Below are positions 41,897 through 61,313 of a stretch of 64,000 nucleotides of DNA, piece by piece (position 1 is the first letter of the stretch; every line of letters starts with the position of its first letter). The stretch is from positions 2,653-66,652 of the forward strand of contig JAQTPW010000001.1 in NCBI GenBank assembly GCA_028712565.1, given 5' to 3'. The stretch is from Minisyncoccota bacterium (lineage in GTDB: Bacteria > Patescibacteriota > Minisyncoccia > Minisyncoccales > JAQTPW01). The notes beneath the pieces are model-generated. The model did not search any database and was not told the origin of the DNA. It saw only the letters and a program-made list of their open reading frames with translations. The position numbers and the translations under genes are program-made.

Positions 41897-41902
41897 TCTG
41901 TA

Positions 41903-42287: not shown

Positions 42288-42300
42288 CCCGAAAATCGTA

Positions 42301-42335
42301 AGCCAGATGAATCAATCTTCGATTCCTGGCTTTTG
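42301..42335 (+). terminator. Rho-independent terminator
   Basis: AGCCAG..GAATC..GATTC..CTGGCT followed by TTTTGTGTTTTT. Confidence 0.6.
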
Positions 42336-42400
42336 TGTTTTTAGAGATAAATTATCGCAAAAATTTTTCCATTTTTTTTGCTACAATATCTGTAGCACCA

Positions 42401-42437
42401 TATATTATTAATATAGCTATCGCCTAGATAATAATAT
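42401..42437 (+). promoter_or_regulatory. Conserved hairpin/promoter-like motif, copy B
   Basis: TATATTATTAAT-ATAGCTATCGCCTAG-ATAATAATAT. Confidence 0.55.
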
Positions 42438-42614
42438 TTGATATTTACTGATTAAAATTAGTGATGTTTTATTGTAGCTTGTTTTTTTAATTATTTTTTG
42501 TTAAAATCTTAAATTGAAAGTTAAATTTTCTATATGCCCCGCAGTAGAATTTTGAACCCTACGGAGGCGTATAAAATTTTTTCTAAATTTTAATTCAAAA
42601 TTCACTGACAGGGT

Positions 42615-43082
42615 ATGCAAATACCGGCAAAAATTTTAAAATTCTTGGATTCGAAAAAGATAAAATATGTTGTAATAAATCATAGGACAGTTTATACTGC
42701 TTATGATAAAGCCACGACGTTGAAGGTGAAACCGAATGTGATTGGAAAGACACTGGTTTTGAAAATAGATTCCAACTTAATTATGGTTTTGGTGCCGGGA
42801 AATAAAAATTTGGATTTGTCAAAAATAAAAAAAGCAGTTGGTGTCCAAAAAATTAATATAGTTTCTGAAACGATTATAAAAAATAAATTCAAGGGAATAA
42901 AAATCGGCGCGATTCCGCCAGCGGCGGAAATTTGGAAATTACGGATATTTATTGATAATAATTTGATGAAAGAAAAAAATATTTTTGTAAATTCGGGAAT
43001 TTACGAAGCATCATTCAAATTATCGCCAAAAGTTTTCGAAAAGTTGGGAGCGGTCGTGGGAAATTTTGGCAAACCCCGTTAG
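42615..43082 (+). CDS. YbaK/ProX-type aminoacyl-tRNA trans-editing (deacylase) domain protein
   Basis: 155 aa. ..VIGKTLVLKID..LIMVLVPGNKNLDLSKIKK.. layout of the YbaK family. The stop codon TAG lies inside the arm of repeat T2 (CCCCGTTAG). Confidence 0.65.
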   Translation: MQIPAKILKFLDSKKIKYVVINHRTVYTAYDKATTLKVKPNVIGKTLVLKIDSNLIMVLVPGNKNLDLSKIKKAVGVQKINIVSETIIKNKFKGIKIGAIPPAAEIWKLRIFIDNNLMKEKNIFVNSGIYEASFKLSPKVFEKLGAVVGNFGKPR

Positions 43083-43185
43083 AAGTTTTGCTAAGATCTG
43101 TGGTAGATTTATAATTTTAAAGATCAAATCGGCTCCGCCTTAAGTAAGATTTTATAAAAAATCTTTAGCGGAACTTCTAACGGGG
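43074..43185. repeat. Inverted-repeat element T2 (CCCCGTTAGAA family)
   Basis: Arms CCCCGTTAGAAGTT (43074-43087) / AACTTCTAACGGGG (43172-43185). Inner hairpin AAGATTTT-ATAA-AAAATCTT. Confidence 0.88.
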
Positions 43186-43305
43186 CAAAGCTAAAAAATA
43201 AAATTTGGGCGGAACGTAAAATCGCTTTGCGATTAACGTTCCAGCCCCGTGAATTTTCAAGATCAAATTTTAAGGGCGATTAGCTCAGCTGGTTAGAGCG
43301 CGTCA

Positions 43306-43456
43306 ATGCTTAATTGATTTTCATAAGCGAGAAAACGGGGGCGTGTAGCTCAGTTGGTTAGAGCACGTCACTGATAATGACGGGGTCAGAGGTTCGAGTC
43401 CTCTCATGCCCACTCTCGCTTATGAAAATCAATTATCCGACGAGCGTAGTGAGGAG
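43306..43456 (+). other. Intervening sequence: 22-bp perfect helix capped by a whole tRNA gene
   Basis: TAATTGATTTTCATAAGCGAGA (43311-43332) is the exact reverse complement of 43414-43435. tRNA-Ile (43339-43412) sits between the two arms. Confidence 0.85.
43339..43412 (+). tRNA. tRNA-Ile (anticodon GAU)
   Basis: Acceptor GGGCGTG/CATGCCC, D stem GCTC/GAGC, anticodon stem CGTCA/TGACG with loop CT-GAT-AA, T arm AGAGG-TTCGAGT-CCTCT, discriminator A. No CCA. Confidence 0.9.
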
Positions 43457-43503
43457 ATCATAATGACGAGGTCAATGGTTCGAGTCCATTATCGCCCACA
43501 AAG

Positions 43504-43575
43504 GGGCCTGTAGTTCAGTGGTAGAACACCCGGTTTGCATCCGGGAGATCGGGAGTCCAAATCTCCCCGGGTCCA
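43504..43575 (+). tRNA. tRNA-Ala (anticodon UGC)
   Basis: Acceptor GGGCCTG/CGGGTCC with G3:U70, D stem GTTC/GAAC, anticodon stem CCCGG/CCGGG with loop TT-TGC-AT, T arm GGGAG-TCCAAAT-CTCCC (unusual C55). Confidence 0.8.
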
Positions 43576-43613
43576 CCGAGTCAAACTCGGTTTGACCGAG
43601 TCAAACTCGGTTT
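43576..43613 (+). terminator. Two tandem identical terminator hairpins
   Basis: CCGAGT-CAA-ACTCGG-TTT repeated at 43576-43593 and 43596-43613. Confidence 0.7.
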
Positions 43614-43701
43614 ACGAGTTTGCGAGGTAGGCAAGTCAGACTTGCCACAATATTTTATAGCAATACCATTTGCAACGTTAGACGTTGCATAAAAAAGAAA
43701 A

Positions 43702-43731
43702 TTTTTCATATTTATTTTTATACAAAAAATC
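43702..43731. repeat. Left copy of a ~26-30-bp direct repeat bracketing the two orphan genes
   Basis: TTTTTCATA..TTTTATACAAAAAATC. The 16-mer TTTTATACAAAAAATC (43716-43731) is identical to 44841-44856. Both copies are followed by a hairpin plus T-run. Confidence 0.75.
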
Positions 43732-43878
43732 ATCCTTCGACACGGCTCAAGATGTTTTTTTATTCTTGACAAACTAAGCTCTGTACGGGGGAATAAAATC
43801 TGATATGATTTTACTAACGAGTTAAGCTCGTTAAAATAAAAAAATTGGGAGATAAATTTTTTATCTCGGGAGGAAAAA

Positions 43879-44364
43879 ATGAATGAGTTGGCTAATGTAA
43901 CTGACGCAAGAATTAACCAGATTGCTTTAGGTACCATGGGTATTTTTTTGAGGGAACATCCCGTTCCGGAAGATGAAAATAAGTACAAGATGTTTGTGGG
44001 CATATACCAGATGTGTGAGGGTATGTGTAAGGAATGGGAAATGGCAGAGATTAAGGTGACCCCCAGCGAACTTCTTGAAGTTTTCTCGTATGTAGTAGGT
44101 GGCGGAAGCGAGGTAATTTCCGACAGGATGGGACAGATCGCAAACGCCTTCATGAGTATTAAATTGCGAGAAAAGAATCGAGGGGAAGTTGAGGGCGTCA
44201 AACATGTAATTGTCAAATATGTCTGCCCAAAGCCTGAAATGACAAGGATAAATGCCTTGCCTGAAGAACTTTTCGCGGCATATATGCGGATCCGTGTAAA
44301 AATTCTTCGGCACGAGAAGAATCAACCACTTTCCGTCGGGAGCTCCAATAGGAGCGAGAGTTAA
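43879..44364 (+). CDS. Hypothetical protein (orphan), strong SD
   Basis: 161 aa. GGGAGG lies 7 nt upstream of the ATG. By eye, local GC is higher than in the flanks, and long antisense ORFs are probably a by-product of this. No motif recognised. Confidence 0.55.
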   Translation: MNELANVTDARINQIALGTMGIFLREHPVPEDENKYKMFVGIYQMCEGMCKEWEMAEIKVTPSELLEVFSYVVGGGSEVISDRMGQIANAFMSIKLREKNRGEVEGVKHVIVKYVCPKPEMTRINALPEELFAAYMRIRVKILRHEKNQPLSVGSSNRSES

Positions 44365-44570
44365 AAAAAAGATTTAATTTCAAAAAGTCTTAGAAAAAAG
44401 TCCTTAGGGTTCAAAAACTCTTTGGACTTTTTCATTTGTGAAAAATTTGTTTACTTAAGCTTAAAAAAATACGCTCTATACAGGGCAAAGAGAATTTGCT
44501 ATATTGTATTAACGAGCTAAAAGAGCTTATTTTATAAAGGTCGCGGTAATTAAAAAATTTTTATATTCAT

Positions 44571-44825
44571 ATGGCAAAAGCTAATTCAGCATTTATGAAG
44601 CCAATGAAAGTCAGCGAAGATTTATCAGCTGTCGTCGGCAAAGGCCCCCTTCCAAGATCCGAAGTTGTTAAGAAACTTTGGGCATACATTAAGAAGAACG
44701 GCCTTCAGGATGCAAAGAATAAACGCAATATTAACGCTGATGCTAATTTGAAAAAAGTTTTCGGCGGAAAAGGGACAGTTAATATGTTTGAGATGACAAA
44801 GCTTGTTTCAAAGCATCTTTCATAA
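44571..44825 (+). CDS. SWIB/MDM2 domain protein
   Basis: 84 aa. ..LSAVVGKGPLPRSEVVKKLWAYIKKNGLQD..NINADANLKKVFG.. is the typical SWIB core. Confidence 0.85.
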   Translation: MAKANSAFMKPMKVSEDLSAVVGKGPLPRSEVVKKLWAYIKKNGLQDAKNKRNINADANLKKVFGGKGTVNMFEMTKLVSKHLS

Positions 44826-44830
44826 GCCAG

Positions 44831-44876
44831 TTTTTCATTATTTTATACAAAAAATCCGTTGTAAGGCGGATTTTTT
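44831..44876. repeat. Right copy of the direct repeat, plus terminator hairpin
   Basis: TTTTTCATTATTTTATACAAAAAATC, then CCG-TTGTAAG-CGG within AATCCG..CGGATT, then T6. Confidence 0.75.
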
Positions 44877-44996
44877 GTTGGAGAAAGATAAGTTTTCCAC
44901 AGCCGGGCTTTTATGTTTTTGCATACACTGTATAATAGACTAATGACAAAAAAGGTCGAATAAATTGTTATAATAAAACCTTAAATTTAATAAACT

Positions 44997-45689
44997 ATGT
45001 TTTTTCAAAATTTAGGAATATCAATTAGCGACGCTCTGATAAATATCTGGAATAGATTTATAAATTTTGCTCCAAATATCATAGTGGCAATAATTATTTT
45101 TGTTATTGGCTGGTTTATTGCGCTTTTTGTTGGAAAATTAATTGCTGAAATCCTAAAGAGATTGAAATTCAATGAGATTTTTGAGAAAGGAAATTGGGAT
45201 GAGGCACTGGCAAAAGCTGATATTAAAGTAGATGTATCTGAGTTTATTGGAGCTATTTTCAAATGGGTTTTAGTGATTGTTTTTCTTCAGCTTTCAGTTG
45301 GTCTTTTGGGTTGGATGCAATTTACCTTGCTTTTGGATAAAATTATAAATTATCTTCCGCATGTAATAGTTGCGGCTTTGATTTTTGTTGTTACAGTTGT
45401 GGTTGTTGATATTGTTGAAAAGTTAGTCAGGGTTACCGTAGAAAGAATGAAAGTGGGCTATGGCCAGACAGTTAGCGCGGTTGTCAGGTGGGCGATTTGG
45501 ACTTTTGCAATTCTGATGATTTTACGGGAATTGATTATTGTGCCTGCATTTATTGACACGATATTTAACGCAATGATTTATGGGACAGTGGCATTTTTGG
45601 TGATATCTTTTGGGCTTTCATTTGGCTTGGGCGGGAAGGAGGCTGCGGCAAAAATGATTGAAGAATTAAAGAGCAAAATTGCAAGATAG
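44997..45689 (+). CDS. Membrane protein with conserved-TM-helix repeats (mechanosensitive-channel-related family)
   Basis: 230 aa, 4-5 TM segments, with repeated ..II.F.IGW..A..VGK.. type helices. Confidence 0.5.
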   Translation: MFFQNLGISISDALINIWNRFINFAPNIIVAIIIFVIGWFIALFVGKLIAEILKRLKFNEIFEKGNWDEALAKADIKVDVSEFIGAIFKWVLVIVFLQLSVGLLGWMQFTLLLDKIINYLPHVIVAALIFVVTVVVVDIVEKLVRVTVERMKVGYGQTVSAVVRWAIWTFAILMILRELIIVPAFIDTIFNAMIYGTVAFLVISFGLSFGLGGKEAAAKMIEELKSKIAR

Positions 45690-45713
45690 GTTTCTTTATT
45701 AATGTGCATAACC

Positions 45714-45740
45714 AATGCCGCCCTCTTCGGGGGCGGCATT
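45714..45740 (+). terminator. Strong hairpin (no clear T-run)
   Basis: AATGCCGCCC-TCTTCGG-GGGCGGCATT, 10-bp perfect stem. Confidence 0.5.
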
Positions 45741-45753
45741 GTATATTGCGGGC

Positions 45754-45781
45754 TTGACACGCACTTTTGTTTTGCTAATAT
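45754..45781 (+). promoter_or_regulatory. Sigma70-like promoter upstream of 23S
   Basis: TTGACA (45754-45759), 16 nt including TGC, then TAATAT (45776-45781). Confidence 0.55.
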
Positions 45782-46332
45782 ATTAGCAGGATTATATATG
45801 AATATAAAAACAAAAACTATAAACAAAGAGAGCGGCTAATTTGCTGTTTTTCGCGCGTGATTGAAGCCGCTTCTCCAAAGCGGTTTTTGTTTTTTCAGTA
45901 GAGCAACTTCGACAAAAGTTTTTAAAGAAAACTTTTAAATCTTAAAAAGAGTCGAAGATGTCTTGCTGGATTTTTCCGAACGGTAAGAACTTTAAAAATT
46001 TATCAGTAAATATTAGGGTCTACAATTAATTAAATTATTTAAAACGATTATTAATTGCTAGCCAAGATGGTAAATTAAGGGCGTATGGTGGATGCCTTGG
46101 GAGATTGAGGCGATGAAGGACGCGGCGTGACTGCGATAAGCCTCGGGTAGGTGTCTAGCAACCTCTAATCCGGGGATTTCCGAATGGGGAAACCCAATTC
46201 CATTTTATGGAATTGCCCTGAGAGCAATCGAAGGGCGCATACCCGCTGAAGCGAAACATCCCAGTAAGCGGAGGAAAAGAAAAAAACTTTTTATTTCCTG
46301 AGTAGCGGCGAGCGAAAAGGAAACAGTCCAAA

Positions 46333-46479
46333 CTTATTACTCCTCACTATTGTTCGGAGCAAAATAATCCGAATATCATCCGAATCTTATCCGAATGCTA
46401 CGAATTTAATTTGCAGATTCGGATTTCATTCGTAGATTCGTATTATTTTTAGCGACGAGCAGCAGCGAGGAGTAATGAG
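46333..46479 (+). repeat. Insertion E2 in 23S domain I, homologous to intergenic repeat E1
   Basis: 24-bp imperfect stem CTTATTACTCCTCACTATTGTTCG / CGACGAGCAGCAGCGAGGAGTAATGAG. The interior aligns with 38805-38890. Confidence 0.85.
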
Positions 46480-46731
46480 GGTTGCAAGGAAATGTCGTCG
46501 GGAGCACCCCTCACGTTGAATTAAATTAATGTGAGGGGTTAACCCGAGGGAGAATATTTAGATAAAGTTTTGCTAGTTAAATGCCCCTGGAACGGGCAAC
46601 CATAGAAGGTAATAGTCCTGTAAACGAAAACAACTTTATGCTCCTTGATGTTTTTCTTAAGTACCACGGGAAAAGAAAGTCCTGTGGGAAACAGGCCCAA
46701 CTATAAGGGCCAAGACTAAATACTCAATCTC

Positions 46732-46770
<39 letters not shown>

Positions 46771-46828
46771 CAGGGAGGTGATCCCGGTGAAATAGAAACT
46801 GAAACCATATGCTCACAAAAAGTTCGAG

Positions 46829-46979
46829 CCCCGTTACAATTTTGCTCCTGACATGGCGAGCGAAGCGCGAGTGGCGAATAGCCACATCCTTTTATGGGCG
46901 CAGCGCTTCGCCCAGCAAGGGTGCACCTATTCGGTGCGCGCGCTGCGCAAAATAATTCAGAGGCAAAATTGTAACGGGG
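46829..46979 (+). repeat. Intervening sequence T3 replacing the tip of 23S helix 25 (CCCCGTTA family arms)
   Basis: Perfect 17-bp arms CCCCGTTACAATTTTGC / GCAAAATTGTAACGGGG around a GC-rich core. Flanked by ..GTTCGAG and TGAGAGCGTAC.., which correspond to E. coli ..GTGGGAGC[H25]GTGACTGCGTACC. Confidence 0.85.
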
Positions 46980-49125
46980 TGAGAGCGTACTTTTTGGAGA
47001 ACGAGCCAACGAGTTTCTTCACGCTTTTTGTCTAAGCCCCTATGGGGCGGAGGCGTAGTGAAAGCAAGCGTTAATAGCGCAAAAAAATAAAGCGTGGGGA
47101 AGACCCGAAGCCAAGCGAGCTTGCCATGATCAGGGCGAACTCTGGAGAAATCTGGAGGGAGGCCCGAACCTATGAGCCGTGCAATACTCTGGGACGAATT
47201 GTGGCAAGAAGAGAAAACCTAAACGAGCTTGGTAATAGCTGGTTCTCCCCGAAACAGCTTTGGGGCTAATGGCAGGTAAAAACTTTTGGAGGTAGAGCAC
47301 TAAATGGATAACCGTGGACTTCGTCCAGGTAATCCAATTAAACTCCGAATACCAGAAGTCTATTTCCTGCTAGCAAGACCGTGGGGGCTAAGCTTCACGG
47401 TCAAAAGGGAAGCAGCCCAGATCTTCATCTAAGGTCCCTAAACTGAGCTAAGTGTTATTAAGGAAGTGGAGTTCCTTTGATAGTTAGGAGGTTTGCTTAG
47501 AAGCAGTAACCCTTTAAAAAGTGCGTAACAGCTTACTAACTAAGGAATTCTGCGCTAAAGATTTAGGGGCTAAGCTCAGTACCGAAGATAAGAATGAACA
47601 TGCAATTTATTGCGTGTTCGTGGTAGGGGAGCGTCCTGCTCGCAGCGAAGATAAATCGTAAGATTTGTTGGAGTGAGCAGGAGTGAAAATGTTGGCATGA
47701 GTAACCGCAATGCAGGTGAAATCCCTGCACACCGAAAACCTAAAGTTTCCTTGGCAACGACAATCGGCCAAGGGTTAGGCGGTCCTTAGCTGAACCCGAA
47801 AGGGGCAAGTGATGGACAGCCGGTTAATATTCCGGCCCTCTGGCCTATTTTTTAGGAAGTGACGAAATTTAGTAACTCGGGCTAATTATGGATTTTAGTT
47901 TTTGCCTTAAGATTTTTCAAAAGGCAAGAAAATGTTCCCCCTCGGGGGGATAAATCCGAGCGAGCAAGTTTCCCAGAAAAACTTCCAAGAGTTAAATAGG
48001 CCGGATCCGTACCAAAACCGACACAGGTAGGTTGGTGTGAATACACTAAGGTGAACGGGCGAAGCCTCGTTAAGGAACTCGGCAAAAAAGTGTTCGTACG
48101 TTCGCAATAAGAACTTCCCGAACCCGCAAGGGTGAGGGACGCAGCGAAAGTTTTCCAGGCGACTGTTTATCAAAAACACAGGTCCCTGCTCAACTCGCAA
48201 GAGGATGTATAGGGGCTGAAGTCTGACCAGCGCTGGAATGTTAAAGGTGAGGGTTGCTTCCGCAAGGGAGTAGCTCATTGCACTAAGCTTCCAGTCAGCG
48301 TCCGCCGTAACTATAACGGTGTTAAAGTAGCGTATCCCCTTGTCAGGTAAGTTCTGACCCGCATGAAAGACTTCACGACTTGGAAACTGTCTCAACGAGG
48401 AGCTCGGTGAAAACACAATACCGGTAAAGATGCCGGTTACCTGCGGCTAGACGGAAAGACCCCGGGAGCTTTACTGTAACTAGATATTGAATTTTGGTTT
48501 TGGATGCGTAGCGTAGAGGTGAGGATTTGAGGCCGCGATCTCGGTTGCGGCTGATCCGACAATGAAACAGCCTTCTTTCGAAACCACAGTTCTAACCCCC
48601 ATTAAATTGGGGAGACAGTGTCTGGCGGTCAGTTTAAGTGGGGCACTTGCCTCCTAAAATGTAATGGAGGCGTTTAAAGGTCGGCTAACTCCGGATGGAA
48701 ATCGGAGTGGTCGTGCAAAGGCATAAGCCGGCTTTACTGCAAGAACTATATTTCGCGCAGTTGGGAAACCAGAACTTAGTGAACCGACGGATTCTCATAG
48801 AAAATCCGAAGATCATCAACCAAAAGTTACCCCGGGGATAACAGGCTAGTAGGACCCGCGAGTCCATATCAACGGTCCTGTTCGGCACCTCGATGTCGGC
48901 TCTCCGCATCCTGGAGGTGAAGTCGCTTCCAAGGGTCTGACTGTTCGCCAGTTAAAGCGGAACGTGAGCTGGGTTCAGTACGTCGTAAGACAGTACGGTC
49001 CCTATCTACCGTAGGCGTTGAATCTTGAGGGGACTTGGGAATAGTACGAGAGGACTTTCCTGAACTGACCTCTGGTGTACCAGCTGTTCTGCCAAGAGCA
49101 TTGCTGGGTAGCTATGTCGGGAACT

Positions 49126-49156
<31 letters not shown>

Positions 49157-49373
49157 AAACCCCAAGATTAGGATTCATAGATTCCAGAGAGACCATCTGG
49201 TCGATAGACTGCCGGTGTAAGCTCCGTAAGGGGTTAAGCCAAGCAGCACTAATAAATCATTACACAAATCTTGACTAGCAATTAATGATCATTGGAAAAT
49301 AATTTAACTAATATTTTAAACCTTAGCGAAAGGCGGCGCGTCAAACGTGCCAGGCCTCGTGAGAGGGCGCTGA

Positions 49374-49487
49374 GGTGGCGGTTATACTGGCATTGTCCCA
49401 CCTGTTCCCATTCCGAACACAGAAGTGAAATATGCCAAGGCCGATGATAGTATCCTTTTGGATGCGAAAGTAGGAAGCTGCCACCTT
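49374..49487 (+). rRNA. rrf: 5S rRNA
   Basis: GGTGGCGGTTATAC...CCCACCTGTTCCCATTCCGAACACAGAAGTGAAA...GTAGGAAGCTGCCACC. The terminal helix closes correctly. Confidence 0.9.
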
Positions 49488-49561
49488 AGCGCCTTTTTGG
49501 TTACAAAATTTCGAGCACATAATAGGGCTTTTATTTTTTTTTCTTTGATATTAATATATAA

Positions 49562-50356
49562 ATGATGAAGCGTTTTTCTAAAATAAAATTAGGCGCAATT
49601 GGCATTTTGTTAATCGCGTTTTTTGTTTTAGTGAATCTGCCAGGTTTTTCCAAAGGAATCCGAAATTTTTTCTATTCGTTTTCTTCCCCAATCCAGAGAA
49701 TGCTATTGGGAGCAGGGGATAATATGTCAAATTTTTTTGCCGGAATTTTTAGCTACGGAAATTTAAAAAAAGAAAATGATAATTTTAAAGTTCAAATTCT
49801 TGAGAAATCTGCCGAAATCTCCGGCCTTCAAGAATTAAAAAAAGAGAACGAGGCTTTAAAAGCGGGTTTGGTCCAGAATCTTCAAAAAGATTTTAAATTA
49901 ATTTTTGCTAATATTGTCAGCAAGGGAATTGGAGATTTTATTCTGATTAATAAGGGTTTAAATGACGGGGTAAAAAAAGACATGCCTGTAATTACGGAAC
50001 AGAAATTTTTACTAGGTAAAATTTACGAAGTTTATAAAAATTATTCGAAAGTATTGCTAATTACGAATAAAGACAGCTCCTTTGATGCTGAAATTTTATC
50101 AGCTGAGGCAACAGGAGTTTTAAAAGGCAAGGGAAATTTTAACGCAGTTTTGGATTCGGTCCCCCAGGAAGCGGAAATAAAAACCGGGGATTTGGTTTTT
50201 ACAACTTCTTTGGGCGACGTTTTCCCCGAAGGCCTTTTAGTAGGCGAAATAAAATCCCTTAATAAAAACGATGTCAGTTCTTTTCAGCAAGCTGAAATAA
50301 AACCGGCATTTGATAAGGCGTTGAAAAGCAGCGTTTTTATAATTTCTAACTTTTGA
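49562..50356 (+). CDS. mreC: Rod shape-determining protein MreC
   Basis: 264 aa. N-terminal TM, coiled coil, ..GDLVFTTSLGDVFPEGLLVGEI... Confidence 0.88.
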   Translation: MMKRFSKIKLGAIGILLIAFFVLVNLPGFSKGIRNFFYSFSSPIQRMLLGAGDNMSNFFAGIFSYGNLKKENDNFKVQILEKSAEISGLQELKKENEALKAGLVQNLQKDFKLIFANIVSKGIGDFILINKGLNDGVKKDMPVITEQKFLLGKIYEVYKNYSKVLLITNKDSSFDAEILSAEATGVLKGKGNFNAVLDSVPQEAEIKTGDLVFTTSLGDVFPEGLLVGEIKSLNKNDVSSFQQAEIKPAFDKALKSSVFIISNF

Positions 50357-50667
50357 TGCTGAAAAATATTTTAATTCTAATTTTTGGCTTATACATTTTA
50401 GTTTTGTTTCAAACAAGCCTTTTTGCTGATTTTCGCGCTTTTGGATTCCCCCCAAATTTTATTTTGGTTTTTGTAATTTTGTTTAATTTCTTTGAAAGTC
50501 CCGCGAAGAAATTTGGCTTAATTTCTGCAATTTTCGGCGGCTTTTTTTTGGATGTTTTTTCTGCCAGCTTCTTTGGATTTCACATTTTATTTCTATTGGT
50601 CTGCGCAGTTTTTATTAAATTTATAGTTAGGAGATATGTTAGAATTCCAGGTATCCAAAAATATTAA
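50353..50667 (+). CDS. mreD: Rod shape-determining protein MreD-like small membrane protein
   Basis: 104 aa, 3-4 TM segments. Assignment rests on its position between mreC and pbp2. Confidence 0.6.
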   Translation: MMLKNILILIFGLYILVLFQTSLFADFRAFGFPPNFILVFVILFNFFESPAKKFGLISAIFGGFFLDVFSASFFGFHILFLLVCAVFIKFIVRRYVRIPGIQKY

Positions 50668-52609
50668 AAAAAGAAGAATTTCATTTGCCTACCAAAACGA
50701 TATCGAGCCGCACGAGGCGCTTTTGGATAAATTAGCCCAAAGAAAAGAAGAAGAATTTGGCCTTACGGGGAAAAAATTTGAAGTTCCCCTTTCAAAAAAG
50801 GTTTTGATTGGTTTTTTGATTGGGTCTCTTTCTTTATTTTTATTTTTATTTTTGAAAACTGCCCAGCTTCAGATATTAGAAGGAAAAAAGTATTCAATGC
50901 TTTCTCAAAAAAATAAATTCATAAATTCCCAGATTCAGGCAGAAAGAGGCGTAATTTATGATAAAAATTTAAATCAATTGGTTTTTAACGTTCCGGCATT
51001 CGACCTAATTTTCAATAAAGCGAATTTTCCAGAAGATGGGGCAGAAAAAAACCGAATAATTGCGGAAGTTTCTCAAATAATCGGGGAGAGCATTGAAAAC
51101 GTGGAGGAAAAAATAGAAAATAACGAGAATCCGGTTTTGGAAAATATCCCGCATCAGGTTTTAATTGTTTTGGAAACAAAAATGGATGATCTTTTAGGAT
51201 TTGAAATTCGCAAAGACTGGGTTAGGGAGTATAAAGATAGTGAAAATTTTTCTCATTTGTTGGGGTATTTGGGAAAAATAACAGCCGCTGAATTAAAAGA
51301 TTCTAACTATACGGTTTTTGATTGGGTGGGAAGGGCAGGTATTGAAAAAAAGTATGAGGACTTTTTAAAGAAAGATCCTGGAGAATTGCAGATTGAAAGA
51401 GATGCTTTGGGGAATGAAATTTCTCGAGAAATTATTTCTCAGCCAGAATCCGGGAAAAGTTTAGTCCTTTGGGTGGATTCTGGTTTGCAAAATAAGATAA
51501 CCGAAGCGCTAAAGACAATTTTGAGGGAAAAAGGATTAAAAAATGCAGCAGCTGTTGCTTTGGATCCAAAAACTGGAGGGATTTTATCTATGGTTTCTTT
51601 GCCAAGTTATGATAATAATCTTTTTAACAAAGGTTCCAACGCCGATGAGCTTTTAAGCCTTCTTTCTAACCCCAATGAGCCGCTTTATAATTTAGCAATA
51701 GGTGGGCAATTCCCAAGCGGGTCAACTATCAAACCGTTGATTGCTTCGGCTGCTCTGCAGGAAAAAATTATATCTCCTAATAAAAAAATAAATGATAGCA
51801 AAGGAAATATTGAAATTCCCAATCCGTGGGATCCTGATTCGCCGACTATAAAGGGCGACTGGACAATTCATGGCTTGACTGATATGCGAAAAGCACTTGC
51901 CGAATCATGCAACGTTTATTTTTATACAATAGGCGGAGGCTATGGCGACCAAAATGGGTTGGGGATCACCAAAATTAAAAAATACCTTGAGCTGTTCGGT
52001 TGGGGAAAGAAAACTAATATAGATTTGCCGGGAGAAGTAGATGGATTCTTGCCTACGCCGGAATGGAAAAAAACAAAAACCGGAAATGACTGGCTTTTAG
52101 GAGATACTTATAATGTTTCTATTGGTCAGGGAGATGTTTTGGTAACTCCGCTTCAGATGGCGGCGAGCTTTCTTCCAATAGTAAATGGGGGCAAGCTTTT
52201 GGAGCCGCAGGTTGTTCAAAAAATAGTTGATTCTAAAAAAAATACGATTGAAAGTTTTGGAACGAAAATTATCAGAGAAAATTTCATAGATCCGGAAAAT
52301 TTAGAAATTGTTAGAGAAGGAATGCGGCAAGGCGTAACCGGGGAAAACAGCCCGCACGCGTCGTCCGTAACATTAAATACCTTGCCCGTAGCTGCCGCCG
52401 CAAAAACCGGAACTGCCGAAACGGGAAAAGTGATAAACGGCGAAAGAATTTATAACCACTGGATTACAGTTTTTGCGCCGTACGACGACCCGCAAATTGT
52501 ATTAACTATAGTTTTTAAAGATGTAAAAGGACTCGGCGGGACTACCTTGCCTGCGGCAAAAGAAATTTTGCAGTGGTATTTTACCGAAGGCGGAGGCGCT
52601 TCGAAATAG
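50636..52609 (+). CDS. mrdA: Penicillin-binding protein 2 (transpeptidase)
   Basis: 657 aa. SxxK (PSGSTIKP), SxN-like region, KTGTAE. Confidence 0.9.
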   Translation: MLEFQVSKNIKKRRISFAYQNDIEPHEALLDKLAQRKEEEFGLTGKKFEVPLSKKVLIGFLIGSLSLFLFLFLKTAQLQILEGKKYSMLSQKNKFINSQIQAERGVIYDKNLNQLVFNVPAFDLIFNKANFPEDGAEKNRIIAEVSQIIGESIENVEEKIENNENPVLENIPHQVLIVLETKMDDLLGFEIRKDWVREYKDSENFSHLLGYLGKITAAELKDSNYTVFDWVGRAGIEKKYEDFLKKDPGELQIERDALGNEISREIISQPESGKSLVLWVDSGLQNKITEALKTILREKGLKNAAAVALDPKTGGILSMVSLPSYDNNLFNKGSNADELLSLLSNPNEPLYNLAIGGQFPSGSTIKPLIASAALQEKIISPNKKINDSKGNIEIPNPWDPDSPTIKGDWTIHGLTDMRKALAESCNVYFYTIGGGYGDQNGLGITKIKKYLELFGWGKKTNIDLPGEVDGFLPTPEWKKTKTGNDWLLGDTYNVSIGQGDVLVTPLQMAASFLPIVNGGKLLEPQVVQKIVDSKKNTIESFGTKIIRENFIDPENLEIVREGMRQGVTGENSPHASSVTLNTLPVAAAAKTGTAETGKVINGERIYNHWITVFAPYDDPQIVLTIVFKDVKGLGGTTLPAAKEILQWYFTEGGGASK

Positions 52610-52675
52610 ATTTAAAGTAGACGTATTCCCCCTTAATTTTTATTAGATCGAATATAATAATATTTTGTAAAATGC

Positions 52676-52715
52676 GTATATTACTAACATAGCTATCGCC
52701 AAGATAGTAATATAT
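52676..52715 (+). promoter_or_regulatory. Conserved hairpin/promoter-like motif, copy C
   Basis: GTATATTACTAAC-ATAGCTATCGCCAAGA-TAGTAATATAT. Abuts or overlaps ATG 52714 of the PaaX-like gene. Confidence 0.6.
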
Positions 52716-53304
52716 GATATACGAAAGTATGAGTAAATATAAATATTATTTTAGAAAACCAAGATCGGAAATTATAAAAGATTTTTTAAACACGCTACTA
52801 GTTGCGGGCACCATTACGATTGCCGCTTCTTCTCCTTATTTTATTGTTAATTTATTAAAAGCCAATAAAAGTTTTAGGCGGTATCCAAAGCCGAGGATTG
52901 CCGATACTTTCGCGCGTTTGAAAAGGGAAGGATTAGTAGAAACCGTACGGCGTAATGGACAAATTTATATAAAACTTACTGATAAGGGAGAAAAGAAAGC
53001 CGGTTTTTACCAAATTAATAGTTTGAAAATAAAAAAACCGAAAAAATGGGATGATAAATGGAGAATTGTTATTTTTGATATTTCTGAGCTAAAAAGAAGC
53101 CACCGGGAAGCTTTTCGAGGAAAATTAAAGGAATTAGGATTTAAATCTCTTCAAAAAAGCGTTTGGGTGCATCCTTTCCAATGTAAAGATGAGATAGCGC
53201 TCCTGCGTGATTTTTTCGGTTTGGAAAAAAATGATATTCGCATAATAGTTGCCGAAGAAATCGAAAATAGCGCCGATTTAAAGAAATATTTTCTTCTTAA
53301 TTAA
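52714..53304 (+). CDS. PaaX-like regulator: TM segment + winged helix + PaaX/Cas2-fold domain (paralog 1)
   Basis: 196 aa. ..FARLKREGLVETVRRNGQIYIKLTDKG.. (wHTH) and ..WDDKWRIVIFDISELKRSHREAFRGKLKELGFKSLQKSVWVHP... The start may be ATG 52729. Confidence 0.65.
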   Translation: MIYESMSKYKYYFRKPRSEIIKDFLNTLLVAGTITIAASSPYFIVNLLKANKSFRRYPKPRIADTFARLKREGLVETVRRNGQIYIKLTDKGEKKAGFYQINSLKIKKPKKWDDKWRIVIFDISELKRSHREAFRGKLKELGFKSLQKSVWVHPFQCKDEIALLRDFFGLEKNDIRIIVAEEIENSADLKKYFLLN

Positions 53305-53335
53305 CACATACGGTTAATTAACTACAAAATAACAA

Positions 53336-53375
53336 AATATTGTTAACATAGCTATCGCCTTGTTAATAATATATT
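53336..53375 (+). promoter_or_regulatory. Conserved hairpin/promoter-like motif, copy D
   Basis: AAATATTGTTAAC-ATAGCTATCGCC-TTGTTAATAATATATT. Confidence 0.55.
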
Positions 53376-53416
53376 GTTTTGTTGTTTGTTAATACTAGAT
53401 ATTGGATATATTGAAT

Positions 53417-53449
53417 AAAAAGTCCCGAGCGGTTAATTCCGTCGGGACT
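53417..53449 (-). terminator. Terminator of the minus-strand orphan gene
   Basis: AGTCCCGA (53421-53428) / TCGGGACT (53442-53449). An A-run on the + strand gives a T-run on the - strand. Confidence 0.7.
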
Positions 53450-53453
53450 TTAA

Positions 53454-53804
53454 TTAAAGGAGGCGAGGTAATATTATTTCTCGGCAACAATCAACGTTAA
53501 AGTCAAAAATTGGTGCTATTTTTGGTTGGCGAGCAATCCACTCCCAAGATTTTCTATTCCAGTATTTCAAGGCCATAAGCGCCAGTTCAGAAGATACACT
53601 GTAAACTAATTTGGGGCCATAGTTTTCTTCTGGATTTATTTCTGAATCAAGATTTATTGCTGGACCAACGACTATTTGTTTTGGTCCTTCAGCTTGAAAA
53701 ATTATTCCAATCCATCCTTTGCGTATTTCCTCAGGGATGCCGGGCCCTTCTGGAGTTTTAACTATCGCTATTAACTTCTTATTTGTCATTTTTCCTTCCT
53801 CCAA
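53454..53804 (-). CDS. Hypothetical protein (orphan), strong SD
   Basis: 116 aa. On its own strand GGAGGAAGGAAAA precedes the ATG. It is a lone minus-strand gene in a + strand array. Confidence 0.55.
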   Translation of the reverse strand: MEEGKMTNKKLIAIVKTPEGPGIPEEIRKGWIGIIFQAEGPKQIVVGPAINLDSEINPEENYGPKLVYSVSSELALMALKYWNRKSWEWIARQPKIAPIFDFNVDCCREIILPRLL

Positions 53805-53953
53805 AATTTATTAAAAGTGCCAAAATTCCGAGATTTTCTCGGTATTTTGATATTAAAATAATAAAATTAAAAGTCAAATTTTCCACTGTTTTTAACTTGT
53901 CTAAGCCAAAAATTTAAAGTAGAATAAAATATCGACTATTTGTGTTAGAAACT

Positions 53954-55417
53954 ATGGCGAATATTGACGAAATAAGAAAAATAAGAATACAAAAGTTAGA
54001 AGCTATAAAGAAAGCCGGGATTTTGGCGTATCCGGAAATAACGAAAAGAACCCACGAAATAGCCAGTGCCCTTAAGGATTTTTCAGCTTTGAATAAAAGT
54101 AAAAAGGAAATAATTTTGTCCGGCAGGATAAAGTCCTTAAGAATTCATGGAGGAGCCACTTTTTTGAATATGGAAGACGGGACCGGAACAATTCAGGCTT
54201 TTTTCAATAAAAATCGGATAGGGGAAAACGGCTACGATTTTTTTACTGAAAATTTTGACATTGGAGATTTCGTTGAAATCAGAGGAATTTTATTTGAGAC
54301 AAAAACCGGAGAAAAAACCTTAGAAGCCGCAGATTTTAAAATGCTGGCAAAGTCACTCCTGCCCCTTCCTGAAAAATGGCACGGCATCCAAGACGTCGAG
54401 GAGAGATTCAGGAAGAGATATTTGGATTTGATTTTTAACAAAGATGTAAAAGAAAAGTTCATTCTTCGTGCCAGGATAATAAAAGAAATCAGAAATTTTT
54501 TTGAAAATGAAGGTTTTATCGAGGTTGAAACTCCGATTTTGCAACCCATATACGGGGGGGCGACCGCCCGGCCATTTAAAACCCATTTGAACGCACTGGA
54601 CGCCGATTTGTATTTAAGGATTTCACCCGAGCTTTATTTAAAAAGGCTTTTAATTGGAGGATTTGAAAAAGTTTTTGAAATTGGGAAATGTTTCCGAAAC
54701 GAGGGTTTAGACCGGCAGCACAATCCTGATTTTACGGAATTGGAATTTTACTGGGCTTATACCGATTATAAAAATTTGATGAATTTCACCGAAAAATTTT
54801 TCTCAACTTTGCTCAAAAATTTGTTCGGAAGCCAGAAAATAAACTATGAAGGCAGAGAAATAGATTTTAAAATTCCCTGGCAGAGGATAGAATACAATGT
54901 CTTATTCAAAAAATATGCCGATATAAATCTGGAGGAAATAAACACTGAAGCATTGAGGAAAAAAGCAAAAGAAATTTTGGGTTCCTCCCCGAAAGGCGAG
55001 AAAGCGGAAATTGCCGACGAGATTTATAAAAAGCTCTGCCGGCCCAAGATAATAGAACCCACCTTTTTGATTCATCATCCGAAGGGTTCGGCTCCTTTGG
55101 CAAAGGAAATTGAAGGAGATCCTTCCGAACTGGCGAGATTCCAGTTGGTTGCCGCGGGCGGTATGGAGCTGGTTAATGCTTTTTCAGAGCTTAACGATCC
55201 AATAGAGCAGAGAGCTAGGTTCAAAGAGCAGGAAAAAATATTAAAAGAAGGTTTTGAAGAGGCGCAGAGAATGGATGAAGATTTTATTGAGGCTTTGGAG
55301 TACGGCATGCCGCCGGCAGCCGGATTTGGCATGGGAATCGACAGATTGGTGGCTTTATTAACCGATTCGCATAGTTTGAGAGAAGTTATATTGTTTCCGA
55401 CAATGAGGAAAAAATAA
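53954..55417 (+). CDS. lysS: Lysine--tRNA ligase (class II)
   Basis: Class II motifs: ..FIEVETPILQPIYGGA.. (motif 2 region) and ..GFGMGIDRLVALL.. (motif 3). ATG 53954 chosen. Confidence 0.93.
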   Translation: MANIDEIRKIRIQKLEAIKKAGILAYPEITKRTHEIASALKDFSALNKSKKEIILSGRIKSLRIHGGATFLNMEDGTGTIQAFFNKNRIGENGYDFFTENFDIGDFVEIRGILFETKTGEKTLEAADFKMLAKSLLPLPEKWHGIQDVEERFRKRYLDLIFNKDVKEKFILRARIIKEIRNFFENEGFIEVETPILQPIYGGATARPFKTHLNALDADLYLRISPELYLKRLLIGGFEKVFEIGKCFRNEGLDRQHNPDFTELEFYWAYTDYKNLMNFTEKFFSTLLKNLFGSQKINYEGREIDFKIPWQRIEYNVLFKKYADINLEEINTEALRKKAKEILGSSPKGEKAEIADEIYKKLCRPKIIEPTFLIHHPKGSAPLAKEIEGDPSELARFQLVAAGGMELVNAFSELNDPIEQRARFKEQEKILKEGFEEAQRMDEDFIEALEYGMPPAAGFGMGIDRLVALLTDSHSLREVILFPTMRKK

Positions 55418-59266: not shown

Positions 59267-60739
59267 ATGTTTTGTCAATATTTAAACCCAAAACCAATAT
59301 CGATTTCTTTGTCTCCTAATACTGAAAAGGATGATATCCTATTGGCTTTTAAGTTGCTTTGGAAACCTTGGCGATGGAAATTCAGCGTAAATCAGCGTAA
59401 CAATCAGCGTCAATCAGCTTCTACGATTTTAGAAGAGGAATTTAAAAAATATTTGGGAGTAAAATATGCCATATCATTTAACAGCGGGAGGTCGGCGTTG
59501 ATGGCAATATTGGCTGCTCTTTTCGGAGAGCAGGCATCCTCCGAAGCCTTGGCGAAGGAGGATGAGGAGGTTCTTTTACAAGCCTTCACTTGTAACGCAG
59601 TTCCAAATCCGGTTATTTGGTCCCGCCTTCGCGAGGCCGAAGCTCGCTACGGCGAGGCAAAGGCCCGCCTTCGCGAGGCCGAAGCTCGCTACGGCGAGGC
59701 AAAGGCCCGCCTTCGCGATGACGCTTCGGCGAGGCAAGCAGGCTTGAAACCTATTTATGTAGATTGCAACGAAAATACATTTAACATTGATCCAGAAGAT
59801 TTAAGGCGTAAGATTACGTCAAACAGCCGCGCCGTAATAGTCCAGCACACTTTCGGTTTGCCCGCAGAAATGGATGAAATTATAAAAATTTGTCAGGCAC
59901 ATAATTTAATATTAATTGAAGATTGCGCGCATTCTTTAGGTGCTACCTATAAAGGAAAAAAGATCGGAACCTTCGGCAGAGTTTCATTTTTCAGTTTTTC
60001 CAGAGATAAAGTAATTTCTTCAGTTTACGGCGGAATGGTAGTTACTTCTGATGATGAACTTGCAAAAAAAATTAAGGAATACCAGGAAAGAATCGGTTAT
60101 CCTTCATATTTTTGGATTCTTCAGCAATTATTGCACCCTGTATTAATGAATTGGCTTATTTTGCCAACATATAAATATTTTGGAAAATATTTATTGATTT
60201 TATTCCAATGGCTTCACATTTTTTCAAAAGCCGTCCATTGGAAGGAAAAGAGGGGGCAAAAACCCTGTTATTTTCCAAAGCGTTTACCAGATGCCTTGGC
60301 AATTTTGGCTCAAAACCAATTTCGGAAATTGGAAAAATTCAACCGGCATCGCCGGGAAATCGCCGAATTTTATAATCGCGAATTAGCCGATACCAGCTAC
60401 CAGCTACCAGTTACCAGCGACGGCGACATTTTCCTTCGTTATGCAATAAAACATCCGAACGCTCATCAAATTATTCAGAAGGCATGGAGTCATAATCTAT
60501 TGGTTGGGGATTGGTATACAACGCCGATTGCTCCGCATGATACTAAATTAGAAAAAATGCAATATACTTTAGGGAGTTGCCCAAATGCGGAAAAATTGGC
60601 AAAAATTACATTAAATTTGCCGACTCATATTAATATTTCGGTGAAAGATGCCCAAAAAATCGTAGACTTTTTAAAAAAAATAAGTAAAAACAATAAAGAC
60701 CATAATACGATTTCCACGGCCGTAGAAAAAGTATTATAA
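59267..60739 (+). CDS. DegT/DnrJ/EryC1/StrS-family PLP aminotransferase carrying several in-frame repeat insertions
   Basis: 490 aa, against my recollection that this family is usually about 370-400 aa. ..ISFNSGRSALMAIL.., ..LIEDCAHSLGATYKGKKIG.., ..FFSFSRDKVIS.. (PLP Lys context). Confidence 0.85.
   Translation: MFCQYLNPKPISISLSPNTEKDDILLAFKLLWKPWRWKFSVNQRNNQRQSASTILEEEFKKYLGVKYAISFNSGRSALMAILAALFGEQASSEALAKEDEEVLLQAFTCNAVPNPVIWSRLREAEARYGEAKARLREAEARYGEAKARLRDDASARQAGLKPIYVDCNENTFNIDPEDLRRKITSNSRAVIVQHTFGLPAEMDEIIKICQAHNLILIEDCAHSLGATYKGKKIGTFGRVSFFSFSRDKVISSVYGGMVVTSDDELAKKIKEYQERIGYPSYFWILQQLLHPVLMNWLILPTYKYFGKYLLILFQWLHIFSKAVHWKEKRGQKPCYFPKRLPDALAILAQNQFRKLEKFNRHRREIAEFYNRELADTSYQLPVTSDGDIFLRYAIKHPNAHQIIQKAWSHNLLVGDWYTTPIAPHDTKLEKMQYTLGSCPNAEKLAKITLNLPTHINISVKDAQKIVDFLKKISKNNKDHNTISTAVEKVL
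59381..59418 (+). repeat. In-frame short tandem repeat (A)ATCAGCGTAA
   Basis: TTCAGCGTAAATCAGCGTAACAATCAGCGTCAATCAGC encodes FSVNQRNNQRQS. Same unit as in the 16S leader (39211-39250). Confidence 0.8.
59525..59570 (+). repeat. In-frame GC-rich palindromic insert
   Basis: CCTCCGAAGCCTTGGCGAAGGAGG folds as CCTCC/GGAGG plus GCC/GGC. Encodes ..ASSEALAKEDE.. between conserved AILAAL and EVLLQAFTC. Confidence 0.65.
59622..59742 (+). repeat. In-frame 42-bp GC-rich tandem repeat (2 full units plus a diverged third)
   Basis: CCCGCCTTCGCGAGGCCGAAGCTCGCTACGGCGAGGCAAAGG at 59622-59663 and 59664-59705, with a diverged copy to about 59742. Encodes RLREAEARYGEAKA x2. Confidence 0.9.
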
Positions 60740-60749: not shown

Positions 60750-61280
60750 ATGAAATTTCCAGTTACCGATAGATTTTTATGGGATTTATATGATTTTCTT
60801 GAAAAGGCAGGTGATATTTATGATGTTTTTTTGGCACGACCCTGGAAAGAAGTTTGGTCTCCGGAACTTCACAAATTTAGATATGAATGGAAGAAAAAGA
60901 AGGATCGAAAATTATTCAGTCGGCTTGTTTATTATTTAAAAAAGAAAGGGTATATAAAGACTAAAAATTTAGAGGAAAAAGAAGCTGTTTTGTTAACAAG
61001 GAAAGGAGCCGATAAGATTTTGAAATTGAAACTTAAAGAAAGTAATAAAAAGAAAAGACCAGACGGAAAGTGGCAAATGGTAATTTTTGATATCCCCGAA
61101 AGAAAGCGTTTTTTAAGAGATTTACTTAGAGAAAATCTTTATCTTTTAGGCTATCAACTGTTGCAACAAAGTATTTGGGTTTGTCCATATGATGTTTCAT
61201 ATAAAACAGAAATAATTCTCAATAAATATTCCCTTGATCAATACGTAAAAACATTTTTAATTAAAGAAATAGAAGTATAG
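60750..61280 (+). CDS. PaaX-like regulator with wHTH + PaaX/Cas2-fold domain (paralog 2)
   Basis: 176 aa. ..LVYYLKKKGYIKTKNLEEKEAVLLTRKG.. and ..PDGKWQMVIFDIPERKRFLRDLLRENLYLLGYQLLQQSIWVCP... Confidence 0.65.
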   Translation: MKFPVTDRFLWDLYDFLEKAGDIYDVFLARPWKEVWSPELHKFRYEWKKKKDRKLFSRLVYYLKKKGYIKTKNLEEKEAVLLTRKGADKILKLKLKESNKKKRPDGKWQMVIFDIPERKRFLRDLLRENLYLLGYQLLQQSIWVCPYDVSYKTEIILNKYSLDQYVKTFLIKEIEV

Positions 61281-61313
61281 TACGATTTCCACGGCCGTAG
61301 AAAATGTATTATA
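61281..61313. repeat. Right copy of the 33-bp direct repeat
   Basis: TACGATTTCCACGGCCGTAGAAAATGTATTATA, starting immediately after the stop of the PaaX-like gene. Confidence 0.9.

Follow-up and report, generated by a model that had tools for sequence, protein, structure and literature searches.

The stretch of DNA analysed here, referred to as the window, comprises 64,000 nt of contig JAQTPW010000001.1 from a Minisyncoccota bacterium (GenBank assembly GCA_028712565.1, positions 2,653 to 66,652). It contains a gene for a PaaX-like protein, p1, which is flanked on both sides by copies (C and D) of a near-palindromic element; two further copies (A and B) lie next to the 16S ribosomal RNA (rRNA) gene. 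The gene order starts with 16S (39252 to ~41592), copy A, a 504-nt geneless unit, copy B, a ybaK-like gene, tRNA-Ile and tRNA-Ala. Three protein genes, 23S, 5S, mreC, mreD and pbp2 follow, and pbp2 is succeeded by copy C, the PaaX-like gene, copy D, a convergent open reading frame (ORF) and lysS. A second gene of the same kind, p2, is placed between two elements of its own, E and F (Table 1). Copies A to D were pointed out in an earlier reading of the letters without database searches (the sequence-only reading), which proposed an operator or promoter, or else a boundary site of small cassettes.

Palindromic elements and PaaX-like genes in the window

The 11-mer ATAGCTATCGC has four exact occurrences in the 64-kb window, all on the plus strand (starts 41872, 42413, 52689 and 53348), and none of 100 dinucleotide-preserving shuffles reached this number. 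A covariance model built from 25 related hairpins and run over the whole window with filters off found exactly A to D, with 45-49.5 bits and E values of 1e-7 to 1e-6, and the runner-up scored 15.6 bits. The four sequences quoted in the sequence-only reading are correct, the window holds exactly these four copies, and their common orientation is borne out. The proposed 11-bp stem with a loop of 12-14 nt is replaced by an ungapped 36-nt near-palindrome: two arms of 16 nt each enclose the central bases TATC, and positions 12-14 form an internal loop. The p1-type core is given as GCTATCGC, and alignment of 200-nt stretches showed that the likeness of the copies is limited to ~40 nt. All four form a predicted RNA hairpin (-7.1 to -15.4 kcal/mol, z scores of -2.1 to -6.8). 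The elements lack the features of intrinsic terminators: in the window clade G+C makes up 14-33% of the stems, there is no T-run behind them, and they went unflagged in the scan for terminators. No Rfam family was reached on A to F or on related elements, even at E <= 10.

Copy A is found ~270 nt past the 16S 3' end, and copy B 178 nt upstream of the ybaK-like gene (42615-43082), after which come tRNA-Ile and tRNA-Ala. Copy D starts 32 nt past the p1 stop codon, between convergent genes. Copy C was previously thought to overlap the start of the PaaX-like gene, but the start codon is the ATG at 52729 and not at 52714, given that all homologues begin with MSKYKYYF and that the 100%-identical database protein P0001 has 191 aa. 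Copy C therefore does not overlap the start codon and ends 15 nt before it.

In p1, two hydrophobic helices at the N-terminus precede a winged helix and a PaaX_M domain of the Cas2-like kind. A Pfam scan identified PaaX_M alone and found neither the N-terminal nor the C-terminal (ligand-binding) domain of PaaX. As a fold match, E. coli PaaX (8a39) ranks first, ahead of Cas2 and VapD proteins. Against the PaaX family model TIGR02277, p1 scores 41.6 bits and p2 28.1 bits, far below the family cut-off of 264.55. Asp117, in the motif 'IVIFDI', is invariant in the alignments, and its place at the end of strand 1 ('FDI') presumably matches that of the catalytic Asp of Cas2. Homologues of p1 are numerous (more than 1371 at E <= 1e-10) and display 60-83% identity across named Patescibacteria groups.

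The hairpin inventory of the sequence-only reading holds for A to D; it missed the second pair, E and F, around the second PaaX_M gene. The p2-type palindrome is also 36 nt long, differs from A to D and has the core AC-GGNC-GT. There is overlap between copy E and the final codons of the ORF upstream, and between copy F and the p2 stop codon. The p2 protein is 100% identical to P0121 of a Candidatus Pacebacteria metagenome-assembled genome, and its homologues number 177.

Table 1. Palindromic elements, PaaX-like genes and promoter- or terminator-like sites in the window.
Feature	Position	Strand	Evidence or score
Copy A (p1-type, orphan)	41861-41896	+	Exact core; covariance model 49.5 bits; fold -13.4 kcal/mol, z -3.6
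Copy B (p1-type, orphan)	42402-42437	+	Covariance model 45.7 bits
Copy C (p1-type, 5' flanking site)	52678-52713	+	Covariance model 45.0 bits
p1 gene, PaaX-like, 191 aa	52729-53304	+	Pfam PaaX_M 7.8e-21
Copy D (p1-type, 3' flanking site)	53337-53372	+	Covariance model 47.2 bits
Copy E (p2-type, 5' site), ATAATACGATTTCCACGGCCGTAGAAAAAGTATTAT	60702-60737	+	Fold -8.3 kcal/mol, z -3.2
p2 gene, PaaX_M paralogue, 176 aa	60750-61280	+	~34% local identity to p1
Copy F (p2-type, 3' site)	61277-61312	+	Fold -11.2 kcal/mol, z -3.7
Sigma-70-like match TTGCTA-17-TATATT, -10 overlapping first bases of copy B	42378-42406	+	Consensus scan only
Terminator-like hairpin with T-run, 66 nt after copy A	41962-41989	+	Consensus scan
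Sigma-70-like site TTGTCT-17-TAGAAT, just upstream of lysS	53897-53925	+	Consensus match

The ORF that converges on the PaaX-like gene (53454-53804, minus strand, 116 aa) has no Pfam match and no counterpart at the syntenic locus L002. A promoter-like site of its own is present at 53877-53850, and a hairpin at 53420-53452.

Conservation of genes and elements in related lineages

Motif scans for further loci gave one true locus in genomes and three in metagenomes, and none in IMG/VR. The true window-type copies are those in L002, L004, L006 and L007, and in L002 and L007 two copies bracket the orthologous PaaX-like gene. Matches in L001, L003 and L005 were rejected as chance, their arms being absent, and L008 is doubtful (29.7 bits, no PaaX-like context). 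Beyond L002 and L007, DNA was fetched around seven p1 homologues (L009, L012, L015, L016, L017, L019 and L020), and in all seven a palindrome is present 15-90 nt ahead of the start codon and another 2-135 nt past the stop. With the window, L002 and L007 included, every p1 orthologue examined is flanked both 5' and 3', and the distinct loci with this arrangement number 10 besides the window. The spacing within each repeat pair is 575-800 nt. The upstream element of L015 and the elements of L016, as well as the downstream element of L025, fit the ungapped 36-nt frame poorly. The sample amounts to ~35 elements from ~15 genomes, many of them related by descent, and p-values are for that reason indicative only.

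The neighbours of p1 vary by lineage, and comprise pbp2/lysS, radical-SAM/lysS, greA/lysS, 16S/tRNA-Ile, a peptidoglycan-binding protein/murB, and dnaK. The gene and both elements move together through at least five genomic contexts; L017 and L020/L021 have the PaaX-like gene, with an element on either side, after 16S and ahead of tRNA-Ile. Three p2 homologues (L023, L024 and L025) are located in a conserved cluster of mur ligase, aminotransferase, femAB and ftsQ genes, each with its own flanking pair and the core ACGG(C/T)CGT. The search of window and relatives, as suggested in the sequence-only reading, ties the elements to PaaX-like genes, the pairing being constant despite the changing contexts. 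The link to the adjacent PaaX-like protein, which that reading regarded as plausible, is strongly supported: gene and pair co-travel, and the paralogue has a distinct pair. The association of gene and sites extends across lineages, contexts and two paralogue families.

The elements are rare elsewhere. A mismatch search of the 10-20 kb flanks of six orthologues identified no orphan elements, and the covariance model, applied to other loci, retrieved one orphan pair in L009 (G1 and G2) together with weak hits and a few orphans. Across ~230 kb of related loci such hairpins occur at no other genes, save for G1/G2 and the few orphans. The few copies in the window and the few orphans elsewhere suggest a small regulon and not a dispersed repeat. 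Dispersal of the kind known for repetitive extragenic palindromes (REPs) was rejected on the outcome of the mismatch search and of the covariance model.

Some further features of these loci were recorded. L004 (2751-3090 and 3164-3199) contains an orphan window-type copy at a distance of 76 nt from the RNase P RNA 3' end; the orientation is convergent, and the copy directly follows an unannotated 112-aa gene. Tandem repeats are present between the 3' element and lysS in L002 (3960-4100; aatttggtgaaa in three copies and 'tctttattttg'-like units), and tandem cttaatgttagtgagt units between the stop codon of the PaaX-like gene and the 3' element in L019 (10590-10700), where a run of N precedes the 5' element.

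The arm sequences change from lineage to lineage and are still complementary (for example ATATTACTAAC, ATAGTATTATC, ATCGTATAATT, ACTGTAATAAG and AGCGTATAATT). The p1-type core, GC-NATN-GC, is kept across lineages, with TATC, TATA, GATC, CATG or GTTC as central bases. In an ungapped alignment of 25 elements, 82% of the cells are paired, and both sides change in 13 of the 16 pairs (57 cells). None of 500 shuffles reached any of five covariation measures, and sliding the partner by 1-3 columns left only 28-53% pairing. Compensation is also seen inside single genomes: the two copies in L023 differ at four arm positions, and each of the four differences alters both partners of a pair. The earlier observation that the arms differ and remain complementary is borne out by the shuffle control and by this intra-genome compensation. 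A long-range duplex of the 5' with the 3' copy, as in rRNA-type processing stems, was rejected as compensation occurs within the copy (position 7 in C and D; positions 5, 9 and 10 in L023).

The core is specific to the p1 or the p2 family, while the arms vary but pair. The strongest argument for a sequence-specific reader is this combination of a family-specific core with free, paired arms, which implies that such a reader exists. The protein encoded between the sites would be the simplest candidate.

DNA operator or RNA hairpin

We tentatively favour a dual reading, plausible though short of probable, in which A to D are cognate autoregulatory sites of p1, that is PaaX-type operators which would also be transcribed and kept foldable. 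From the comparative data we infer p1 as the binder, duplex DNA as its likely target, and a regulatory outcome. A two-fold symmetric p1 dimer would bind the 36-bp palindrome as duplex DNA, with a geometry resembling E. coli PaaX on an inverted repeat of 39 bp. One occupied site would be where the p1 transcription unit begins and one just past the p1 stop codon, and p1 expression would be repressed or insulated by a roadblock, possibly with looping out of the ~600-bp gene. The dimer would act also at A and B, between 16S and ybaK/tRNA-Ile, and p2 would do likewise with its own orthogonal sites E and F. Because the sites would lie in transcribed untranslated regions (UTRs), the sense transcript is proposed to fold into a hairpin, with the fold under selection.

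Besides the association of gene and sites, the orthogonal p2 pair and the conserved core, further observations favour an operator. The 5' copies in L009, L012 and L020, and copy B, are found at or just after predicted promoters, a geometry compatible with autoregulation by a dimer; in L009, L012 and L020 the start predicted from a sigma-70-like match upstream of the 5' copy coincides with the first base of the element or shortly precedes it. The central four bases are self-complementary in most lineages (TATA, GATC and CATG for p1; GGCC for p2), and positions 17 and 20 covary (T..A, G..C, C..G). A symmetric centre is expected for a symmetric dimer on duplex DNA, and not for a 4-nt loop.

PaaX of E. 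coli autorepresses its own promoter Px, and its site is TGATTC(N27)GAATCA, a 39-bp inverted repeat (PMC9493321). The system described here shares with PaaX of E. coli and Pseudomonas the superfamily (winged helix and Cas2-like PaaX_M dimerisation domain), a long inverted repeat as operator or, here, putative operator (39 bp (PMC9493321), compared with 36 nt) and a regulator that controls, or in the present case would control, its own gene. It differs from PaaX in the absence of the N- and C-terminal Pfam domains, in scores of 28-44 bits against the TIGR02277 cut-off, in the hydrophobic N-terminal helices of p1, and in having sites on both sides of the gene. Moreover, the centre is conserved here while the arms covary in a hairpin-like manner, and no paa genes are found nearby. 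The PaaX box TGATTC-N27-GAATCA, with up to two mismatches, has no match at A to F and two elsewhere in the window, compared with 4.3 by chance.

In lac (O1/O2) and gal (OE/OI), a symmetric operator at the transcription start has a second copy some hundreds of bp further downstream. The arrangement around p1 resembles these in having two copies of a symmetric site, one at the start and one downstream. It differs in that the second site is beyond the stop codon, so that the whole regulator gene would be looped out, and oligomerisation beyond the dimer is not known for p1.

Several points weigh against an operator. The support is comparative throughout, and the promoter positions used above, like all promoter and terminator calls, are matches to consensus patterns. 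For a classical operator it is unusual to be located past the stop codon or, like copy E, within the ORF upstream. The hydrophobic N-terminal helices of p1 suggest a membrane anchor, which would be atypical for PaaX. The centre of the window clade, TATC, is not self-complementary. On the sense strand, stem mismatches outside columns 12-14 are G·T in 26 cases and A·C in 4; intergenic base composition predicts ~1.1:1, the significance being approximate in view of the phylogenetic non-independence of the copies. Where the two copies around a gene differ, the changes tend to affect both partners of a pair (odds ratio 7.1, Fisher p = 2e-7). Recognition of duplex DNA alone leaves the G·T bias and the intra-copy compensation unexplained, and the two point to a single-stranded, probably RNA, hairpin. 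The element carries two signatures, one typical of a DNA operator with two-fold symmetry and the other of an RNA hairpin on the sense strand.

The strongest competitor, which we nevertheless consider unlikely, places the function at the RNA level only. The sense hairpins would act in the 5' and 3' UTRs and in the rRNA-spacer transcript, and the flanked protein would bind their apex by way of the winged helix or the Cas2-like/RRM-like domain; in doing so it would control translation or stability, or cleave or trim the transcript as Cas6, ToxN or VapD do. Besides the excess of G·T beyond composition and the compensation inside copies of one genome, this explanation is favoured by the orientation of the window-clade copies, all of which run with transcription, and by the transcription starts predicted in L009, L012 and L020, which coincide with the first base of the 5' hairpin or shortly precede it. 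It is also consistent with 3' copies between stop codon and terminator (L007), with p2 sites that lie within an operon and leave no room for a promoter, with RNases (SSO8090 and VapD) among the Cas2-fold neighbours, and with the invariant Asp at the end of strand 1. However, it gives no reason for a tetraloop to be self-complementary and covarying, and the nearest characterised relative is a DNA-binding repressor. Furthermore, the best promoter match of copy B and of the upstream copy in L017 overlaps the left arm and places the start inside the element, and in L024 an extended -10 (TGTATAAT) is found downstream of the 5' element.

Two kinds of known systems offer precedents for hairpins beside a protein gene. 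In the bgl operon of E. coli and in LicT systems, the gene of the BglG/LicT regulator is bracketed by ~30-nt imperfect palindromes, the ribonucleic antiterminator (RAT) hairpins, which are read in the sense transcript. The upstream and downstream palindromes around a regulator gene are common to both arrangements. The CAT-PRD fold of BglG/LicT is unrelated to p1, however, and RAT overlaps a terminator that it prevents from forming, whereas the terminators here are 10-66 nt downstream and do not overlap the element; RNA binding is a candidate activity in the present case. CRISPR/Cas6 and the type III toxin-antitoxin system ToxIN combine ~36-nt direct repeats with a protein of Cas2/ferredoxin-like fold, and resemble the present system in the repeat length, the hairpin potential and the specificity of the repeat for the protein family. 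In contrast to these, the two repeats here are non-tandem, 575-800 nt apart, with a protein gene as the 'spacer', and there is no array, cas1 or effector gene. Among the ten ORFs flanking A to D (40988-55417), the Pfam search identified a Cas2-like domain in p1 only; the other ORFs of the window were not scanned for cas genes.

A more specific proposal on the RNA side is rather improbable in our judgement. According to this, p1 and p2 would be factors that bind or cleave RNA hairpins in a sequence-specific manner, each recognising the apex of its own 36-nt hairpin and thereby defining the 5' and 3' ends of its own mRNA, and also transcript ends of the rRNA operon through A/B and through G1/G2 of L009. 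If true, a Cas2 fold would here underlie a 'self-delimiting cistron' system akin to Cas6 or ToxN, widespread and possibly essential in Patescibacteria, where Shine-Dalgarno-based initiation is missing.

Quite improbable, too, is an RNA function independent of the protein, in which the hairpins would be terminal stabilisers or RNase III-type processing signals of short transcripts near or in rRNA and cell-wall operons, with the association to PaaX-like genes incidental to gene position. The hairpins are indeed located at the ends of transcription units: A comes after 16S with a terminator behind it, G1 of L009 comes after 5S, again with a terminator behind it, and G2 precedes mreC. The PaaX-like gene is inside the rRNA operon in L017 and L020, and both the covariation and the tolerance of G·T would be accounted for. 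However, a conserved, paralogue-specific core with free arms implies a sequence-specific reader, the pair accompanies the gene into unrelated contexts, and the near-absence of such hairpins from other genes in the ~230 kb of related loci also argues against it.

We regard it as very unlikely that the elements are boundary or recombination sites of a mobile, or formerly mobile, element-gene-element cassette, comparable to REPtrons, integron cassettes or IS200/IS605 ends, with A-B as an emptied unit. The differing genomic positions of the gene with both elements by lineage, the separate repeat type of each paralogue, and the orphan pairs that bracket non-coding units of approximately gene size (541 nt for A-B, start to start; 599 nt for G1-G2 of L009) would fit such a cassette. 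The called genes in and around the unit encode no transposase, integrase or HUH domain, though, and synteny is stable within clades, with a protein identity of 60-75% across lineages that resembles that of a vertically inherited housekeeping gene. Copies are very few, target-site duplications were not observed, and no coding remnant was detected between A and B. The cassette boundary suggested in the sequence-only reading is therefore not supported, given the conserved synteny and the lack of a recombinase. The same applies to an integron cassette with attC sites, as the called genes of the loci include no integrase. In REPtrons, genes of RAYT transposases are flanked by cognate REP palindromes. 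The likeness lies in ~36-nt palindromes that flank a gene, in a family-specific type, and in orphans in intergenic transcribed regions. The differences are a flanked protein of the PaaX_M/Cas2 fold instead of an HUH/Y1 transposase, 2-4 copies per 64 kb (4 + 2 in the window) instead of hundreds per genome, and a direct instead of an inverted orientation.

Hardly credible at all is the proposal that the elements are sigma-70-type promoters (TTAACA, 18 nt, TAATAT), which fails even though A to D each match the consensus at 9-10 of 12 positions and a same-strand gene is present downstream of B, C, the L006 copy and D' of L002. The hexamers vary among orthologous elements (the right arm ends in AATACTAT in L009, AGCACTAT in L012 and ATTACAGT in L019), the supposed spacer between them is the most conserved portion of the element, copy D faces a convergent ORF, and the 3' copy of L007 and the extra copy L007a are each followed by the same terminator within ~10-25 nt (10 nt for the 3' copy). 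Better sigma-70-like matches are found outside the elements, upstream of 5' copies and downstream of 3' copies, and promoter-like matches are not enriched over shuffles (22 versus 16.5 ± 4.8, and 12 versus 6.4 ± 2.5). Moreover, lysS needs no promoter in copy D because it has its own sigma-70-like site (Table 1), and equivalent sites are present upstream of lysS in L009 and L012.

The rRNA spacer, orphan pairs and biological meaning

The spacer between 16S and tRNA-Ile that holds A and B in the window is the place of the PaaX-like gene itself in L017 and L020/L021. A and B may therefore mark a former position of the gene, in keeping with the relic spacer of the sequence-only reading, to which the correspondence of place lends indirect support; however, a coding remnant between A and B could not be detected. 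A and B could equally be working sites at transcript ends, because in the window as in L009 a terminator comes after the first element and the second lies ahead of the next operon. The order of element and then terminator, as for copy A, is seen in L007 and L009. A decayed PaaX-like gene between A and B was rejected after a six-frame, maximum-sensitivity profile search that returned negative scores only; the best match was one of 13 residues (IFAQSPIFITLNL, E 0.3-0.9), and p2 as positive control gave 69 bits. The corresponding search of the G1-G2 unit of L009 for a PaaX-like remnant was likewise negative.

The A-B interior (41897-42400, 504 nt) has no credible ORF and no Rfam family match, and folds far better than shuffles (z -4.7). 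Its hairpins include the terminator-like one that follows copy A (Table 1), a G+C-rich one at ~42083-42125 and a second terminator-like one at ~42300-42340, and a long-range stem GGTGGAG/CTCCACC is formed by segments at ~42149 and 42279. The unit is either an unknown RNA or a relic. The orphan pair of L009 (G1 at 2261-2296, G2 at 2860-2895) consists of p1-like palindromes just after 5S, with a GCCATGGC core of the type of L017 and L020, unlike that of L009's own PaaX-like gene. G1 and G2 flank a strongly structured, non-coding unit of 563 nt, containing a duplicate of the 5S 3' end and repeated ttaggtactcagtgtctaac. Homology between this unit and the A-B interior was rejected, as the alignment was unconvincing.

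The rRNA operon of the window has further unusual features. The 16S gene carries an insertion of ~860 nt near its 3' end (40622-41482), with a LAGLIDADG endonuclease ORF (40988-41416) and weak matches to group II intron D1-D4 (40706-40973), and 16S resumes at ~41483 (ctcgcccgtcac). The 16S-23S spacer of ~4.5 kb (40651-46065) carries, besides tRNA-Ile and tRNA-Ala, the ybaK-like gene, an ORF (43879-44364), a SWIB gene (44571-44825) and an MscS-like gene (44997-45689). An MscS-like gene is also located directly ahead of 23S in L016 and L017, and ybaK homologues in two looked-up gene tables are located outside the rRNA spacer. The 23S match (46065-49273) spans 3209 nt, compared with 2925 positions of the model, and 23S probably contains an insertion too. 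The 3' tail of the window 16S (41575-41600, GGAUAAAUUAUUU) lacks the CCUCC anti-Shine-Dalgarno sequence, as do the tails in L017 (~2990-3010) and L020 (~9610-9630). None of the 47 window genes inspected has a Shine-Dalgarno motif upstream, which points to initiation without Shine-Dalgarno pairing across the lineage.

Recognisable regulators are, to our knowledge, scarce in Patescibacteria (the candidate phyla radiation, CPR), and hardly any of their cis-elements have been defined by experiment. In the literature on PaaX- and Cas2-like proteins in Patescibacteria/CPR we found no prior description of these proteins or elements. The general kind is already known, namely a regulator flanked by its own palindromic sites. 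New, as far as known, are the two-sided flanking, the family-specific core with free paired arms and the mixed DNA and RNA signatures, as well as the two orthogonal paralogue systems and the wide conservation in Patescibacteria beside rRNA and cell-wall genes.

The p1 gene and its sites provide a testable protein-site pair, with the orthogonal paralogue-site pair as a built-in specificity control, and the paired palindromes are an annotation landmark for these genomes. An answer to the question of DNA or RNA would show what a Cas2-fold domain targets outside CRISPR systems. The PaaX-like genes are found in clusters for cell wall and cell division (mreCD-pbp2, mur ligase, femAB, ftsQ) and within or beside rRNA operons, and these settings suggest that the module may couple envelope growth to ribosome synthesis.

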